Source: a phage. Taken from it: a DNA stretch of 64,000 nt. Location of the stretch: sequence record PZ386967.1; one strand, written 5' to 3'. Shown in pieces: positions 57,659-64,000 of this stretch (within the stretch, counting starts at the first letter, position 1; each line of letters opens with the position of its first letter). The position numbers and the translations under genes are program-made. Below the pieces are notes generated by a model. It did not search any database. It saw nothing but the letters and a program-made list of their open reading frames with translations, and was not told the DNA's origin.

Positions 57659-58231
57659 ATGGCAATCCCCCTCGTTGGTATGATCCCAGGGGCGCTCAAG
57701 CAACTCTGGAACCTCGGGACTGATTTGATCCAATATAAGCGGGAAGTTGTACAGGCCAAACACGACGTCAAGCTGGAGGCCATCAAGTCCTCCTCAGATT
57801 GGGAGCTGTCTAAGATTACCGAAGTCGGCGGGTCTTGGAAAGACGAATTCTGGACTATCGTGTTGGCCATACCCGCCATCCTCGTCATGACTGCTCCGGT
57901 TGTGGAACTGATTCTGTTCCCTGGTGAGTATCATAAAGGGGATTTCATCAAAGCAGTAATCGGTGGCCTTCAGGCACTAGATACCGCACCTGAATGGTAT
58001 ACCTATTCGTTATTGACAGCAATTAGTGCATCATTCGGTATCAAAGGCTACAACCACTACAAAAGCAACAGGCGAAAAGCCCAAGCTATGGATGCTCTCA
58101 AGCAATTTGGGGTTCGGGTCGTACAGAAAGATCCCACTGTTGTTACTCAGTCGGGTGCTCCCGATCTTGAGTCTGCTCCCCCAGCTGGGTCTACTGCGAC
58201 CTCTGGTGCGTGGCCTGATCTGAAGAAATAA
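57659..58231 (+). CDS. multi-pass membrane protein (hypothetical; holin-like possibility)
   Basis: ORF track start 57641 is TTG; ATG at 57659 has AAGGAG SD; hydrophobic helices. Confidence 0.4.
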   Translation: MAIPLVGMIPGALKQLWNLGTDLIQYKREVVQAKHDVKLEAIKSSSDWELSKITEVGGSWKDEFWTIVLAIPAILVMTAPVVELILFPGEYHKGDFIKAVIGGLQALDTAPEWYTYSLLTAISASFGIKGYNHYKSNRRKAQAMDALKQFGVRVVQKDPTVVTQSGAPDLESAPPAGSTATSGAWPDLKK

Positions 58232-58235
58232 GTTC

Positions 58236-58263
58236 AAGGGGAGGAAACTCCCCTTTCTTTTGG
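58236..58263 (+). terminator. rho-independent terminator
   Basis: AAGGGGAG-GAAA-CTCCCCTT followed by TCTTTT. Confidence 0.6.
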
Positions 58264-58273
58264 TGTTTAGGGA

Positions 58274-58486
58274 ATGAATGTGGTAAACAAGAGATTGCTC
58301 GTCACCCAAGGCGGGGCGACGATAGTGCGCGGAAGGATCTATGAACAAACACAGCTGGGTGATCACAAGACACGCCTGACTATTAAGGCTCCCGATGGTG
58401 GTTGGCCAACAAAGGTGATTGTCCCAGACGGTCTCATAGAACGAGGGTCGGCGGTGTATAAAGGAGCAGAGTTCAAAATTTATTAA
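58274..58486 (+). CDS. hypothetical protein
   Basis: 70-aa ORF. Confidence 0.3.
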   Translation: MNVVNKRLLVTQGGATIVRGRIYEQTQLGDHKTRLTIKAPDGGWPTKVIVPDGLIERGSAVYKGAEFKIY

Positions 58487-58581
58487 AATATTTATTGAAT
58501 AAAGTTTACTTCTTCAATAACTGGCGTATACTTCTAATTGTAGTACGAACAAACAACAATCTGAAGAGAAGGAAATACATC

Positions 58582-59139
58582 ATGGCAATCGAAATTATCG
58601 CTCAATCCAAATCTGGTAAAACTGTAATGTACGGCACTGAAGAAGGCCGCGCAATCACCACTCTGGGCACAATTGACGGTTCCAACCCAGTGAAAGGCGG
58701 TCGCTACCTGGTTGAATACGGTTCACACCTGCTGATGGTAAGCAAAGTCGATGGTCGTGAAATCATGATTCCCCGCAAAGAGTACTTCGACTCGCGCATT
58801 GAAGCCATGAACTTCTTCCTTTTCCAGGAACGTCACGAACTGTTCGTTGAAGCGAAAGACGCAGGCCTGGACGATGCGACTGCCGAACTGATCGCTGAAG
58901 GTAAAATGACTCTTGAGGCTGCTCTGGGTGACATGGATTGCGATGCTGAAGCCCATTACATCGAATATTCCGCTTATCAGAATGAATGCGAAGACGATCC
59001 TGAAGATGACGGCTTCGACCCTGACCTTCACGGTGGCGAGGATGACAACACTCCTTCCCTGGAAGTGATCATGGCAGGCGGTCAGGCCGCTTGGGAGTGG
59101 CAGAACGAAAAGAACGCCTGGCTGGATTCCCACCTTTAA
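58582..59139 (+). CDS. hypothetical acidic protein
   Basis: ORF track 58495..59139; ATG at 58582 follows AGAAGGAAATACATC; highly acidic C-terminus. Confidence 0.45.
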   Translation: MAIEIIAQSKSGKTVMYGTEEGRAITTLGTIDGSNPVKGGRYLVEYGSHLLMVSKVDGREIMIPRKEYFDSRIEAMNFFLFQERHELFVEAKDAGLDDATAELIAEGKMTLEAALGDMDCDAEAHYIEYSAYQNECEDDPEDDGFDPDLHGGEDDNTPSLEVIMAGGQAAWEWQNEKNAWLDSHL

Positions 59140-59156
59140 TGTGAAGAAATAAAGAA

Positions 59157-59182
59157 AGGGGCTTAACGCCCCTTTTCTTATT
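59157..59182. terminator. bidirectional terminator between convergent genes
   Basis: AGGGGC-TTAA-GCCCCT with T-runs on both strands. Confidence 0.6.
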
Positions 59183-59636
59183 CTTCCCAGAAGTCTTCGT
59201 CGTCCCCGACAGCAGCCAGTTCCGTGTCCAGTTCTTCATCGGTAAACGGTGGCAGCACCCCGTTCTGAATCAGATAATCCATCTCATCATCTTCCAGCTG
59301 CAGGTCGGTGGCAATATACAGCGCTCCGCTGCCCTCTTCGTCCGTCTCGATACTGTACGAAGTGTATGGCACCCCATTCACTGTAATGATGATAGACGTT
59401 GGATCCTTGGGATCTACGTGCGCCTCGAACGGCACACCATCAATCGGTGCATCTTCTAGGAAGGTAGCAAGTGCTACGGCGGCGCGGACAACATCAGTGC
59501 CTTCAACGCCCGCATAGATCTCTTCCGCGCCTGTCTCTTCACGATCAAACAGCTCAATCGTGATACCGTCTTGAACACCAGTCCATACAGGGATGTCATT
59601 GGTGTATTCTGATTCAAACAATTTGGAGGTTGGCAT
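59178..59636 (-). CDS. hypothetical acidic protein
   Basis: 152-aa ORF, Asp/Glu-rich. Confidence 0.4.
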   Translation of the reverse strand: MPTSKLFESEYTNDIPVWTGVQDGITIELFDREETGAEEIYAGVEGTDVVRAAVALATFLEDAPIDGVPFEAHVDPKDPTSIIITVNGVPYTSYSIETDEEGSGALYIATDLQLEDDEMDYLIQNGVLPPFTDEELDTELAAVGDDEDFWEE

Positions 59637-59780
59637 GTTGGGTTCCTCAGTGGGTTAGCCATATGGGGTATTTAGGCTTCCCGCTTGGCGAGGTCTGGTT
59701 TGTACAGGACGCCTCTCGGAAATATTGGAGGAAGGTTTTCATAGATACCCCACACGGATTGTATGGGGTATTCAGGAGGG

Positions 59781-60974
59781 TCAGGAAGGGGTGAATTCGT
59801 TTACAGGAACTGTTTCAGGGATAGCCAGCTCAGGGCATGCTGCCTTCATCGGCTCGATGTATGGCTTGCTACCCACAATCCAGAACAGAGTGTTCTCATT
59901 GAGCAACTCGGGCTTGTGTTGCTGAACCCAGGTCATGACCTTGCCTTCATAGCGAGGATGCAACTCAATATCACCCCACTGATATTCCATCAGGTCATTA
60001 TAACGAACCCAATTAGTGGTATGAAGATCCCAATGGTGTACCTCAAAGCGAGGAAGCACGACCTCTGGCTCTTCCTTCTGCCTGATACCACTTAGGAGGC
60101 CAGCCAGCGAAACGCTCTTAGAGGCATGCTGAAGCTCCTTCTTGCCGTGTACATAGTCTGGGTTGTCGTGATAGCGACGGGTAAAGTCGACAATGTGCGG
60201 TAGATTGGCATGTTTGCCGATGATGCGCAGACGACTCTCGATAAAGTCCAGGCGGTTCGGACCGATGCCAATCAGATACACACGCTTCAGATTAGGCTTC
60301 GGATGCATTGCCAGCCCGGTCAGGATGCTTGTGCAAGAGTTGCACGATCCGGCTGGGATGATCAGGTCAGTAATGTGATCAGGAATGTTGGCAACCTGCT
60401 CGCCACCCAACATATGGAACCCAGCAATGCGCTCAGGGGAGTGGGCTGTATGGTCGAGGGTGATACCATACTCCAGATAATACGCCTTTGGATTCTGTTG
60501 TTCGATCAACTTCTTACAGCGCGGCTGGATGGTGCTGTTGTAACCCGAGCCGACGAAGTTGAACTCACTACCAAACCAGGCTGACATTGCCACCATTTCA
60601 TGGTTCATACAGGTGGTGGGTTTGGTCGCGCCGAGCACAGTAGTTGTCTTGCCGCCGAAGTGCCGAGAGACTGCCGTCGCCATAGGGGACTGCGGACTAC
60701 CAACGACAGTACCATGGATGATGTCAGGGGAGCCTCCGGTCATGAGGTGCTCAACCATCAACCAGATGGCCTGGCGGAGTTTGCTGCCGTTGATGCCCTG
60801 CTGGCCATTTGCATAATTGGACAGCGGCGCAAAATAATCTTCACGCTTGAACCAGACCTGCTGGTTGGTTTCGGGGTTGACGACAAGTTCGCACGGGGTG
60901 TGCTTGTAGAGATAATCTTCCCAATGGACCAGGTTGCGGTCGAGGGAAAGGATATCGAAGATGGTCTTGTTCAT
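59781..60974 (-). CDS. possible PLP-dependent (fold-type II-like) enzyme; low-confidence
   Basis: ORF track start 60995; ATG at 60974 has AGGAGAAAA SD. NGSKLRQA resembles the S-x-K-x-R lysine motif of Trp-synthase-beta-like enzymes, but the match is weak. Confidence 0.3.
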   Translation of the reverse strand: MNKTIFDILSLDRNLVHWEDYLYKHTPCELVVNPETNQQVWFKREDYFAPLSNYANGQQGINGSKLRQAIWLMVEHLMTGGSPDIIHGTVVGSPQSPMATAVSRHFGGKTTTVLGATKPTTCMNHEMVAMSAWFGSEFNFVGSGYNSTIQPRCKKLIEQQNPKAYYLEYGITLDHTAHSPERIAGFHMLGGEQVANIPDHITDLIIPAGSCNSCTSILTGLAMHPKPNLKRVYLIGIGPNRLDFIESRLRIIGKHANLPHIVDFTRRYHDNPDYVHGKKELQHASKSVSLAGLLSGIRQKEEPEVVLPRFEVHHWDLHTTNWVRYNDLMEYQWGDIELHPRYEGKVMTWVQQHKPELLNENTLFWIVGSKPYIEPMKAACPELAIPETVPVNEFTPS

Positions 60975-61044
60975 TCTATTTTCTCCTGTAGACATTGGCT
61001 TATCATAGTGTATCTACAGGAGTATAGAAAAGGAGAATCTCGGA

Positions 61045-61689
61045 TTACTTCTTGAACAGACGAAGGAACTTCATCATGTTATCCATGAAAGTTGGCTTCT
61101 TGGCCTTTTGTTTTACTGGAGCACCCTGATCATTCAGAACACGACTGGCCGGAGGAGTTGGATTCAAAGATTTAATTGCCTGATTCAAATCGGAATTATC
61201 CACGACACCCACTTCTTCACCGACCGTAACGCATGGTTTGATTAGAACGGATTTCTTAGACTGCTCATACTGATGAGCGATATCCAGATATTTCTTGCGC
61301 TCTGCGTAGAAATCAACAGACTTGACCTTGCGACGACGCCAATTGGCGCTTTCTTCGCCATAGAAATCATATCCGTTTCTGATCAGCCAGTGTACGGCTT
61401 GTTCAAAAGAACCGAAGACCATAAGTGGAGCACCCTGGCCTTTCTCAGATTGTTCCAGGCTACCATAACCCATCAATACAACCTGGCCTTTGATACTCAA
61501 ATCAAACGTCATACCAAGGTTCGGGATGTTTTTATCGCGGCGGAAGAACCCGCCATCACGGTAGACGTAAACAGGCGACAGGAACTCATTCAGAGTACGC
61601 TTGACACCCTTGTATCGGAAGAGTCTGACAATTGGAGGGGTGTCACGGGAAATCACTTCGTTCAATTCCCAGATAGAAACATTACGCAT
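61045..61689 (-). CDS. hypothetical protein
   Basis: 214-aa ORF; last protein gene before the tRNA region. Confidence 0.4.
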   Translation of the reverse strand: MRNVSIWELNEVISRDTPPIVRLFRYKGVKRTLNEFLSPVYVYRDGGFFRRDKNIPNLGMTFDLSIKGQVVLMGYGSLEQSEKGQGAPLMVFGSFEQAVHWLIRNGYDFYGEESANWRRRKVKSVDFYAERKKYLDIAHQYEQSKKSVLIKPCVTVGEEVGVVDNSDLNQAIKSLNPTPPASRVLNDQGAPVKQKAKKPTFMDNMMKFLRLFKK

Positions 61690-61805
61690 CGGTGTATCCT
61701 CAAATCTATGACAGGGGGTTAACGGTTAAATTTTAAACCCCCTTTGTATCATTGAACAAACTATGATAAAGGAGGACATGCTTGGGTCGATAAGAAGATA
61801 ATAAG

Positions 61806-61842
61806 ACAGGGATAAAAAGAAAGCCGGATAGGATATCCGGCT
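61806..61842 (-). terminator. rho-independent terminator closing the minus-strand tRNA cluster
   Basis: AGCCGGATA-GGA-TATCCGGCT followed on minus strand by TTCTTTTTATCC. Confidence 0.55.
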
Positions 61843-62058
61843 ATACCACATCGATGGGTTGGGTTGAAAGACTACACGCTTACACTGGTACTACCCTATG
61901 GGAGAGCGCGTCAGGAGTCGAACCTGAAGTCGTCGACGTAGAGAAAGCTATTTGCATTTCACTATCCTCGCCGCGATTTTCTTAACTTCCTAAACACCCC
62001 GATTACGAGAGAGTCGACATGCACATCTTCTAACTCTTCAGGAAGTCACGCCCGTAAT

Positions 62059-62147
62059 TTGGCGGAAGGTGAAGGATTCGAACCTTCGGGGGCTAAAAGC
62101 CCCACTCGATTAGCAGTCGAGTCCCTTAAACCTCTCGGGCAACCTTC
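62059..62147 (-). tRNA. tRNA-Ser (anticodon GCU), class II with long variable arm
   Basis: Hand-folded: acceptor GGAAGGT/ACCTTCC, anticodon stem CTCGA/TCGAG with loop CTGCTAA, variable hairpin GGGGC-TTTTA-GCCCC, T-arm GAAGG-TTCGAAT-CCTTC, discriminator G, encoded CCA. Confidence 0.8.
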
Positions 62148-62368
62148 CAATTTGGACGGGCTTCACACCCGATTGAGCATTTGATCTGCTGTAGCCCAAC
62201 TCCCCGCGCTTCTCAGCGCCGATTGGTTAACTGGCGACCAGTGCCTTCTGGTTCGATCTCCTGGAACTTTACAGGCTTTGCGCCCGACCATTTCTGGAAG
62301 TTGGGGCATCGTTTCCGATGTGGAGTCACCCCATTTTATACACAGCTGGCTGCAACGCTTACTGTGTT

Positions 62369-62452
62369 TGGTGTGAGTGGATGGATTCGAACCACCGCGC
62401 TGTTACGGGGAGATTTACAGTCTCCTGCATTCGACCGCTCTGCCACACTCAC
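62369..62452 (-). tRNA. tRNA-Tyr (anticodon GUA)
   Basis: Acceptor GTGAGTG/CACTCAC, anticodon stem GGAGA/TCTCC loop CTGTAAA, long variable arm, T-loop TTCGAAT, discriminator A, CCA. Confidence 0.75.
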
Positions 62453-62709
62453 ATTTGGTCTGCCGCTGCGTGCTGGGCCACGCTCGAGGACATCGGCCAT
62501 CCTTCCTCAGCTAATCCACGCAGCGGTAGATTTGTATCAGAGTGTCCGGTGTAGCAACCCGTGAGGTGCGCACTACTGTAGCCTCTACACTCTGAATTTG
62601 GTGGGCGTTACTATCGTCGTCTTCGGATTCCGTTCGGCTATTGGACAGAGGCTTGGAGCTTGTCGGTCGCGTACTTTATGCCTATTCACTTTCGTTCACA
62701 CCCATTGTC

Positions 62710-62785
62710 TGGCGACGATGGCAGGACTTGAACCTGCGACATACGGTTTAACAGACCGCCGTTCTACCGACTGAACTACATCGTC
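62710..62785 (-). tRNA. tRNA-Asn (anticodon GUU)
   Basis: Acceptor GACGATG/CATCGTC, D-arm GTTC-AGTCGGTA-GAAC, anticodon loop CTGTTAA, T-arm GCAGG-TTCAAGT-CCTGC, discriminator G, CCA. Confidence 0.85.
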
Positions 62786-62794
62786 TTGCAAATC

Positions 62795-62819
62795 ACTATA
62801 CCATATAAAGTTTATTGAA
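62795..62819 (-). promoter_or_regulatory. TTCAAT-box / TATAGT promoter positioned to start transcription just upstream of tRNA-Asn
   Basis: Minus TTCAAT 62819-62814, 13-nt spacer, TATAGT 62800-62795, 9 nt before the mature tRNA 5' end. Confidence 0.45.
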
Positions 62820-62956
62820 CAAACATTTATTTTACAACAAACTGTATTGGCGGGGTCTGAGGCTTTTCACCTCACCTGCTGGGTTTGGCCGCCCAGCCGT
62901 TCTCTATGAGGATTCACTGTCCGGACAGCTATCCATTAAACTATCGCCCCTCAATA

Positions 62957-63033
62957 TGGTGATCCTGATTGGGTTTGAACCAATGACCAATGAATTATGA
63001 GTTCACTGCTCTAACCGACTGAGCTACAGGACC
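62957..63033 (-). tRNA. tRNA with CAU anticodon (elongator Met or Ile2-lysidine type)
   Basis: Acceptor GGTCCTG/CAGGATC (one G-U), D-arm GCTC-AGTCGGTTA-GAGC, anticodon loop CTCATAA, T-arm ATTGG-TTCAAAC-CCAAT, discriminator A, CCA; no initiator-specific features. Confidence 0.75.
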
Positions 63034-64000
63034 AAATTATTGTGTGACCAACCAAGGACTGTCAACCCTTTATCCCGTTTGTGCATGATCAGTTCATACA
63101 GGCCTCTTTGTGCTGCCTCACGGCATGCGCTTCTGTTGGTCATTGGCTTACACTGTGGCCTCACAACAGGCGTTTATTTTTCCAGGGCTTTCCACTTACA
63201 AGTCTTAACCAGACCGGGATACGGGCTTGTAAGATCGGGTTGGACACAACTTTGAGGACACTGACGACGTATACGAGTCACCCATAACAGATATTCGGAT
63301 GCCAGTGTCCTCAAAGTTGCAACCAATGTCGCAACTCGCAGCTTCCATACAGAAGCAACTTGTCCTCTAACGCTCGGACCAAACGAGGCTGGCTGGTTGA
63401 TTCAGAGCCGCTGGTTGCTCCAGCAAGCATGGGTTGATAGCCCGGCAACATAGAATCACCCAAAGATGAAGAACATTCATGACTCACATCACACCACGAA
63501 TGGCCTGAAAGAGAATCGAACTCTTTAAATGCTCTTCATTTTGTGAACTTGAGAATACTACGCCTGTCTCGGGTTTCCCCTTAGTTCGGCCTCCCAGTCC
63601 TCGCCGCGCCGGGTAGCTAACCCTGATGGCTCGTCTGCTACTGAGTTCTTCTTGGTGCCCACCAGTGTCCGGAATGTGTAGACATCGCAATCTGCAAGGC
63701 ATGGTCTATTTCACCCAATGCTCTCTCAAGTTCACAAATCGAAGTGCCCTGACTCAACAGTATGGCCCAATATGCTGTTATCGTCCACCGGATTGGCCGC
63801 CCAATTTGTAGATCAACCTTTGGGTTTAAGATAAATTGTCAAGGCACTTCGATTTGTGTGCCCTTCACCTGCCAGGGATCAGGGCTGATGGCAAGACTTC
63901 GCTCACATCTTTCAAGATACTCGTGAGAATATCCTCAAAGATGTGGAGCCGTTTTAGGGAGTCGAACCCAAATGCTCGGCCAGCGCTGACCTTACATCCC

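Follow-up and report, generated by a model that had tools for sequence, protein, structure and literature searches.

A probable array of exchangeable structured RNA modules beside the tRNA genes of a Vi1-like phage

The DNA considered here is a 64,000-nucleotide (nt) stretch of phage sequence (record PZ386967.1), hereafter called the window, and our subject is its last kilobase, positions 63034-64000, which is free of open reading frames (ORFs). When positions 62000-64000 were used as a megablast query, 290 phage records matched, effectively all of them from the Ackermannviridae (Kuttervirus, Agtrevirus-like, Taipeivirus, Limestonevirus, and Miltonvirus). The nearest relative is Enterobacter phage fGh-Ecl02 (locus L001), at 95% over the entire query, and to judge from these matches the window phage is a Vi1-like member of the Ackermannviridae. 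The ORF-free kilobase lies directly 5′ of the tRNA-Met gene in the minus sense, on the same strand as the tRNAs, and is the promoter-distal half of a minus-strand non-coding stretch of ~2 kb, which extends ~950 nt past the window end, as judged from the relatives. Comparison of the related loci indicates that the region is an array of autonomous structured RNA modules, and not one giant RNA. A minus-strand transcript would carry the following features in this order:

63944-64000, minus strand: the 3′ 57 nt of a 126-nt tRNA-like RNA, “tl”; the full unit comes from relatives, and its 5′ 69 nt lie beyond the window.
63904-63945, minus strand: hairpin I4, a stem of 19 base pairs (bp; CACAUCUUUGAGG.../...AAAGAUGUG) with a 4-nt loop; predicted fold -22.2 kcal/mol, z = -7.2.
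63539-63862, minus strand: core module, ~320 nt; alignment A2, n = 24.
63466-63539, minus strand: hairpin H_T, a 12-14-bp stem (AUGAAGAGCAUU / AAUGUUCUUCAU); predicted fold -26.9 kcal/mol, z = -4.5.
63335-63462, minus strand: block of short conserved helices from the whole-region consensus fold, containing the invariant CCUCGUUUGGUCCGAGCG.
63240-63326, minus strand: hairpin I1, stem 22-23 bp, loop ~40 nt with the conserved UAUGGGUGAC; alignment A1, n = 12.
63034-63245, minus strand: S1, a ~200-nt multibranch RNA abutting tRNA-Met; alignment A3, n = 28, five genera.
62957-63033, minus strand: tRNA-Met(CAT), the first of four co-oriented tRNA genes (ARAGORN).
62710-62785, minus strand: tRNA-Asn (ARAGORN).
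62369-62452, minus strand: tRNA-Tyr (ARAGORN).
62060-62148, minus strand: tRNA-Ser (ARAGORN).
61814-61842, minus strand: intrinsic-terminator-like hairpin and U run (AGCCGGAUAUCCUAUCCGGCU UUCUUUUU), read from the sequence, closing the tRNA/non-coding unit.

All four tRNA genes were also recovered by the Rfam tRNA model (56-76 bits). A preliminary description, made from the letters of this DNA, had placed the region beside a phage tRNA array and had suspected that the element continues beyond the window; four co-oriented tRNA genes do adjoin it, and both the zone and the tRNA-like unit continue in the relatives. Every relative examined has an ORF-poor zone between a small coding sequence (CDS) and the tRNAs. 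In fGh-Ecl02 this zone spans ~3.2 kb between a 660-nt CDS and a 48-codon CDS, and holds just the four tRNAs and one doubtful 49-codon CDS. In the records of other relatives, the zone is blank or packed with “hypothetical proteins” of 30-70 codons.

In order to examine the modules, we collected 50 related loci, located the module copies by BLAST and nhmmer, and used 39 of the loci for the module alignments. The modules were extracted, duplicates were removed, and the pairing of the named structures was compared with slid-partner controls, which correct for relatedness, as shuffling controls do not. In S1 (28 distinct sequences; five genera, among them phages of Dickeya and Serratia), 45 pairs in nine helices are paired in 99.3% of the cells, with 11 compensatory pairs, as compared to 24-39% paired cells in the slid controls. 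The core (24 distinct sequences) has 71 pairs in 10 helices, 99.5% paired, 16 of them compensatory; its slid controls reach 31-46%, with at most three such pairs. In the I1 stem (12 distinct sequences), 22 pairs are 99.6% paired and six are compensatory, against 37-43% in the slid controls. The whole-region consensus fold adds 17 pairs in I4, three of which are compensatory, and the helix 63453-63462 / 63394-63403 of the short-helix block, with five compensatory pairs. This abundant covariation bears out the earlier view of a non-coding region with conserved RNA secondary structure.

S1 consists of an outer helix, the CUUACAAG/CUUGUAAG hairpin, the GCAUGAACUGAUCAUGC hairpin, a hairpin with a GNRA loop at 63115-63124, and an A-rich strand that does not vary, GGAAAGCCCUGGAAAAAUAAAC. 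In the core, helix I3 (63733-63753 / 63838-63858) closes an 84-nt loop, and helix I2 (63543-63554 / 63724-63735) encloses four hairpins, one of which is the GGG-GAAA-CCC tetraloop at 63568-63584. The short-helix block also holds a hairpin at 63409-63425, and the insert of H_T in the window carries a T-arm-like AGAG-UUCGAUU-CUCU at 63510-63524. Across genera, S1 and the core keep their unpaired motifs unchanged, and the identity of S1 across genera (78-92%) is equal to or higher than that of the neighbouring gene for a pyridoxal phosphate (PLP) enzyme (71-90%). The Shine-Dalgarno (SD)-like hexamer GGGUGA occurs three times, in the minus sense, in loops or strands of the modules (63711-63716, 63456-63461, and 63278-63283).

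Our search of the region for inverted repeats recovered four: I1 (63240-63263 / 63303-63326), I2 (63531-63554 / 63724-63747), I3 (63733-63753 / 63838-63858; 21 nt with one mismatch), and I4 (63904-63922 / 63927-63945). I1 was absent from the preliminary description. The imperfect hairpins that it noticed near 63905-63942 fall within I4, and its 16-mer at 63733-63748, pairing with 63843-63858, was located exactly. The complementarity that it reported for the 12-mer GTGAACTTGAGA is perfect, with coordinates given one base too low (the true ones are 63543-63554 / 63724-63735). Its two long-range helices do adjoin, sharing the three nucleotides 63733-63735, but they lie side by side and are not nested. 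Tested on their own, the I2 and I3 helices are paired in 99.9% of the cells in 24 distinct relatives, with compensatory changes present; one core pair (137-328 in this test) is C-G in 16 sequences and U-A in eight. The inverted repeats and the absence of a conserved ORF are thus confirmed as real.

Which strand is functional? G·U pairs account for 5-12% of the paired cells, and the same pairings fall from >99% to 88-95% when read on the plus strand. U·G and G·U pairs are invariant in the I1 stem; wherever a single base has changed independently in the stem of I3 or I1, the change is from C to U facing G in the minus sense; and GNRA tetraloops (GCC-GUGA/GUAA-GGC in S1 and GGG-GAAA-CCC in the core) are read in the minus sense only. 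The 967 nt fold to -354 kcal/mol (z = -5.8) as the minus strand and to -322 kcal/mol (z = -4.3) as the plus strand. Because the G·U pairs and the wobble-compatible one-sided changes fit the minus sense only, the minus strand is, on this comparative evidence, the functional one.

The same strand specificity bears on an explanation at the level of DNA, in which the repeats would serve as palindromic protein-binding sites, as a replication origin or packaging site, or as the ends (terminal inverted repeats) of a small mobile element. The repeats are indeed long and perfect, and the motif CRCAAAWYGAAG occurs three times and changes in concert. Two GenBank records, those of phage heyday (L004) and phage dinky, begin inside the I1 hairpin, and the 21-nt I3 arm is annotated “repeat_region” in several Danish phage records (kage and aagejoakim; also heyday). 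A DNA function, however, predicts neither strand-specific G·U pairs nor one-sided changes confined to wobbles, and the base composition and skew are ordinary except for an excess of G on the minus strand. The preliminary description had itself raised the terminal repeats of a mobile element as an alternative; the repeats are single-copy, the I3 and I1 arms having no further copies in the 64 kb beyond one pair each, so that the dispersed copies of a miniature transposable element are lacking. On reading the sequence, no direct (target-site) repeats flank I3, no formal search having been made. We give very little credence to this explanation. We also considered the record starts and “repeat_region” annotations as genome ends and rejected them; they are probably assembly breaks and automatic repeat calls, and the heyday record is short (144 kb).

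Next, we projected every ORF of at least 34 aa onto a 13-genome alignment. None is conserved: stops, frameshifts or loss of the start affect each of them in some close relative, which upholds the earlier statement that the region has no credible ORF. Could small proteins nevertheless be encoded, for example by the ORF 63484-63702(-) and the ORF from the ATG at 63451(-)? An SD-like GGGUGA precedes both AUGs by 5-8 nt, and many CDSs of 30-70 aa are annotated here in Magnus, SeKF_19, and Mutine. The former ORF is the most persistent, but its differences fall 13/19/13 over codon positions 1/2/3 between two main sequence types, without an excess at the third position; its ATG is lost in L034, and stops interrupt it in L022 and L030. 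In L016, otherwise 97% identical, an insertion of 4 nt disrupts the latter, which is also broken in L003, L005, and L028, all with frameshifts, and in L011/L013. L018 lacks both, and the GGGUGA ahead of the ATG at 63451 (63456-63461) sits in the short-block helix with five compensatory pairs. That the region serves to encode small proteins is hardly credible.

How is the region organized? The preliminary description had proposed a candidate large multi-branched RNA, to be compared with the large RNA families and group I introns of Rfam. The whole-region consensus fold contains local helices only, with spans of at most 184 nt; two exceptions draw on bases of the truncated tl. The modules are deleted, miniaturised, and swapped independently. 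L018 lacks 63329-63708. In L028 the core is miniaturised, the 170-nt interior of I2 being reduced to the GAAA hairpin alone on a retained I2 stem. The I4 stem is conserved and covaries around five different interiors: the inserts of relatives measure 50-95 nt, some with T-arm-like hairpins, and the window has an “empty” 4-nt loop. H_T has three alternative interiors or stems, with relatives carrying other inserts or an entirely different stem at its position. Dickeya and Serratia phages retain S1, as found by nhmmer, and not the core. The identities to the same relatives are discordant as well: the I1 of the window is 71% identical to that of fGh-Ecl02 and 97% to that of a Klebsiella Taipeivirus, and the respective values for the core are 98% and 96%. 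Since modules are gained, lost, and swapped independently and no supported helix exceeds 184 nt, we read the region as a modular array.

These observations make it improbable that the region is a single, globally folded RNA of 1-2 kb like GOLLD or ROOL. Such an RNA would account for a contiguous, ORF-free, densely structured region beside a tRNA array, and for GNRA tetraloops and T-loop-like motifs, as used by large RNAs in tertiary contacts. GOLLD and ROOL often adjoin tRNA genes in phage genomes, and GOLLD (RF01998) and ROOL (RF03087) are likewise ORF-free and highly structured; the array here is modular, without a conserved global fold. A cmscan against Rfam 15 at E<=1, covering window positions 58000-64000 and L001 5500-10200, returned the four tRNAs and chance-level hits only; GOLLD, ROOL, other large Rfam RNAs, group I introns, and transfer-messenger RNA (tmRNA) gave no covariance-model match in these stretches. 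A permissive cmscan of nine relatives gave only tRNAs, STnc100 in Taipeivirus, and chance-level microRNA, plastid, and tmRNA hits. Faint hits to the permuted tmRNA and beta-tmRNA models, not significant (E about 1, best 0.0085), fall at one homologous upstream spot beyond the window (L001 8254-8404 and L015 5780-5867, both minus strand); the tmRNA-type hits in relatives are partial and outside the window (E 0.0085 to 4).

The STnc100 hits (RF02076) are informative as to what a slot in the array can hold. Taipeivirus relatives carry an insert of ~170 nt at about 63343/63344, a full-length match to STnc100 on the minus strand (L006 2778-2991 and L022 1118-1331; 48.7 bits against a gathering score of 47); the Rfam scan has no STnc100 hit in the window. 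STnc100 is an Hfq-type phage small RNA (sRNA), and the zone can therefore host genes for trans-acting sRNAs. STnc100 is known as a prophage-borne enterobacterial sRNA (bioRxiv 10.64898/2026.05.13.724894; PMC12370729).

The modules occupy one syntenic position in all of the relatives. The region had no blastn match in 5,426 complete E. coli genomes, and the exact S1 motif did not occur in a set of 185,579 bacterial and archaeal species, each represented by a single genome; it was found in just two metagenome contigs, and the exact core motif occurred only in IMG/VR contigs of Ackermannviridae size. The neighbouring 189-aa protein, used as a query for related loci, returned close relatives only. 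Parts of the region, window ~63383-63463 (85%) and ~63189-63237 (96%), have matches in two Klebsiella phage records of unusual size, pKP-BM327-1.2 (77 kb) and KP13-26 (144 kb). S1 is still conserved where homing-endonuclease genes or other inserts part it from tRNA-Met. In PhaxI (L009 1685-2326, minus strand) and Mutine (L013 2058-2513, minus strand), such genes lie between S1 and tRNA-Met, one annotated as HNH and the other just as “endonuclease”, a parallel to segB in the T4 tRNA cluster. Such genes may offer a mechanism for the mosaic exchange of modules.

The long hairpins at 63904-63945, 63733-63858, and 63240-63326 resemble one another in their basal sequences (CACAUCU..., CACAAAU..., and CAACUUU..., closing with ...GUG). 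Serratia phage 3M (L015 4446-4538, 5452-5523, and 5669-5743) has perfect hairpins of 18-19 bp starting with CACAAC and CACATC in its zone. The resemblance points to a paralogous hairpin family or a common recognition determinant.

We then considered the unit at the window edge. The window closes with 57 nt that form the 3′ end of the 126-nt unit GCCGUUAUAUCUGACUG...GGGUUCGACUCCCUAAAACGGCUCCA, the sequence of which was taken from relatives. Its predicted fold is a four-way junction with a 6-bp acceptor-like stem, a long arm, a second arm, and a T arm. The closing stem of acceptor type, GCCGUU/AACGGC, is followed by a discriminator U and an encoded CCA that ends at 63944, and hairpin I4 begins inside this CCA. 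The T arm, GGG-UUCGACU-CCC at 63958-63970, is the T-loop that the preliminary description had seen at the window edge (GGGTTCGACTCCC on the minus strand). The second arm, GGUCA-GCGC-UGGCC, has a 4-nt loop in the anticodon position, and tl therefore has no anticodon loop. Thus, tl shares with tRNAs the T arm with a UUCGAnU loop, the closing stem, and the discriminator with CCA, but lacks the tRNA cloverleaf with its D arm and 7-nt anticodon loop; it was called by neither ARAGORN nor the tRNA model of Rfam (RF00005), in the window or in 15 relatives. Among 14 distinct variants from three genera, tl is almost unchanging, with one compensatory C-G to U-A change in the second arm, and the sequence 5′ of it is wholly different.

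T-arm-like fragments, at 63958-63970, at 63510-63524, and in the inserts of relatives, might also be what is left of former tRNA genes, and the region a now functionless graveyard in which tRNA genes have decayed and homing endonucleases have left scars. The tRNA content does vary among relatives, HNH and other endonuclease genes lie in the zone of PhaxI and Mutine, and tl is degenerate in L001. Decay, however, would not maintain the pairing of helices that are not tRNA-like through compensatory changes, nor keep S1 as conserved as the neighbouring enzyme gene across five genera, nor hold tl near-invariant in 14 variants despite its wholly different flanks. We therefore give little credence to a functionless region.

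The closest known parallel in layout is found in phage T4, where rnaC (species 1) and rnaD (species 2) are likewise non-coding and directly adjoin the phage tRNA cluster in the same orientation; that cluster likewise includes a homing-endonuclease gene. T4 rnaC folds with a closing stem, two arms, and a T arm, CCGGG-UUCGAAU-CCCGG, and tl has the same layout. The annotation of rnaD ends at CC, where the genome has CCA, and tl likewise encodes CCA. Same-strand contiguity with a tRNA cluster and a closing stem plus T arm are thus common to tl and the T4-type stable RNAs. Between rnaC/rnaD and the array, blastn found only T-loop matches of 13-14 nt (E>=0.29), short of sequence homology. The T4 RNAs lie 3′ of the tRNAs and total ~260 nt, whereas the array here lies 5′ and measures ~2 kb, and S1, the core, and the long bracketing stems have no T4 counterpart. 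To our knowledge, the role of the T4 species 1 and 2 RNAs has been an open question for about fifty years. Structured stable RNAs attached to phage tRNA clusters are thus a kind already known; what is new is these families, the ~2-kb scale, and the layout of stem-bracketed exchangeable cargos, which are absent from Rfam 15 and the searched literature. In the literature on Ackermannviridae, Kuttervirus, CBA120, and Viunalikevirus transcriptomes or non-coding RNAs, we found nothing on this zone.

The long stems suggest how such a transcript could be divided. RNase III needs about two helical turns of near-perfect double-stranded RNA, and I1 (22-23 bp), I3 (20-21 bp), and I4 (19 bp) are of this length. 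In the rRNA operon, RNase III frees 16S and 23S rRNA by cutting the stems that flank them. The rrn-operon stems and the hairpins of the T7 early region are likewise long; here, near-perfect stems of 19-23 bp flank variable “cargos” of 4-170 nt, unlike rRNA, and cleavage is predicted from the stems.

Overall, the best explanation, and one that we regard as probable, is that the array is co-transcribed with the tRNAs and cut into stable RNAs. First, the array and the tRNAs would form one non-coding precursor transcript. Second, enzymes of the host would cut this precursor: the tRNAs and the tRNA-like unit would be processed by RNase P and the 3′ trimming enzymes, and the near-perfect 19-23-bp stems I1, I3, and I4 that bracket the variable inserts by RNase III. 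Finally, stable small RNAs similar to T4 species 1 and 2 would result.

What would these RNAs do? Most likely, the module RNAs act in trans, either as regulators or by binding host or phage proteins, whether as partners or as decoys, and a purely cis role in tRNA maturation is less likely. The strongest rival to co-transcription with release of functional RNAs is indeed a leader that works in cis only, in which the hairpins and the tRNA-like fold give RNase III, P, and E entry sites and exonuclease blocks for the yield or maturation of the tRNAs, and the excised pieces are by-products. The region adjoins the tRNAs in the same orientation, no terminator lies inside it, and its long perfect stems and tRNA-like unit resemble processing signals. 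RNase III cleavage of the T4 tRNA precursor was reportedly needed for a normal yield of tRNA-Gln (Pragai and Apirion, early 1980s). Nevertheless, ~2 kb far exceeds the needs of processing, modules are lost without loss of the tRNAs, and the near-invariant tl, like the invariant single-stranded motifs of S1 and the core, points to specific partners. We favour action in trans because the unpaired motifs are invariant across genera, because STnc100, a member of a trans-acting sRNA family, fills one slot in relatives, and because S1 is conserved even where endonuclease genes part it from tRNA-Met. We consider a leader confined to cis functions unlikely.

Several points weigh against stable RNAs released from a common precursor. 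Transcription, the processing sites, and the stability of the RNAs are what we infer, and susceptibility to RNase III was judged from the length and perfection of the stems alone. No convincing promoter for the array was found; the sole strong sigma-70-like site would initiate inside tRNA-Met. The tl unit is degenerate in L001, the nearest relative of the window, so that at least one phage can do without it. Much of the covariation lies between two or three sequence “types”, which recombine as blocks, and the independent substitution events are therefore fewer than the cell counts suggest. Moreover, two short ORFs have the SD-like GGGUGA 5-8 nt upstream of AUG, and may be translated in a subset of the phages.

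A bolder version of co-transcription with processing, which we put forward tentatively and think less probable, is a hitherto undescribed “RNA island” of the Ackermannviridae. In such an island, the stems would bracket interchangeable cargos, the CCA-ending tRNA mimic would punctuate the transcript, and S1, the core, and the mimic would be new classes of trans-acting RNA that the lineages exchange. If so, these RNAs could be decoys for tRNA-targeting defence nucleases or tRNA-handling enzymes, or sponges or regulators of host factors, and would be exchanged by recombination, as are anti-defence genes.

Phages of the Ackermannviridae (Vi1-like, Kuttervirus, and their allies) have been isolated widely and find use against Salmonella, E. 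coli O157, Klebsiella, and Dickeya. The zone occurs in about 290 deposited genomes; its annotation there is blank or consists of dubious proteins of 30-70 aa and can be corrected, and S1, the core, hairpins I1 and I4, and the tRNA-like RNA are candidate families for RNA databases. Beside T4, the array is also a second system, and a much richer one, in which to study the role of stable RNAs in phage tRNA clusters, and its stem-bracketed, swappable cargos suggest a general way for phages to express and exchange small RNAs.

The borders of the unit carry further features. The homologue of the 61814-61842 site in L001 was scored as a terminator, and the records of Magnus and Mutine annotate a terminator there; a scan of L001 found no minus-strand terminator-like sites within the zone. 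The terminator site follows tRNA-Ser and one further T-arm-like element. This element, at 61900-61990 on the minus strand, may be a second tRNA-like remnant or mimic: its T arm, UCAGG-UUCGACU-CCUGA, is at 61914-61924, relatives have “tRNA-OTHER” annotated there, and neither ARAGORN nor Rfam called it. The near-consensus sigma-70-like site at the 3′ end of S1 has TTGACA at 63060-63065, a 17-nt spacer, and AATAAT at 63036-63041 on the minus strand. As a promoter of tRNA-Met it was rejected; it is poorly placed, with just 3 nt between its end and the mature 5′ end, and its -35 hexamer lacks conservation. At the upstream border of the zone, the 48-codon ORF (L001 8942-9088, minus strand) specifies a hydrophobic peptide (MFYMMLLLILLIGITFTLLG...) and is annotated in L001, L008, L009, L010, and L013.

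The spacers between the tRNA genes (62149-62368, 62453-62709, and 62786-62956; 170-260 nt) are also ORF-free. In the minus sense, the Ser-Tyr and Asn-Met spacers fold somewhat better than shuffled sequences (z about -2.1), and the Asn-Met spacer has short motifs in common with S1 and the core.

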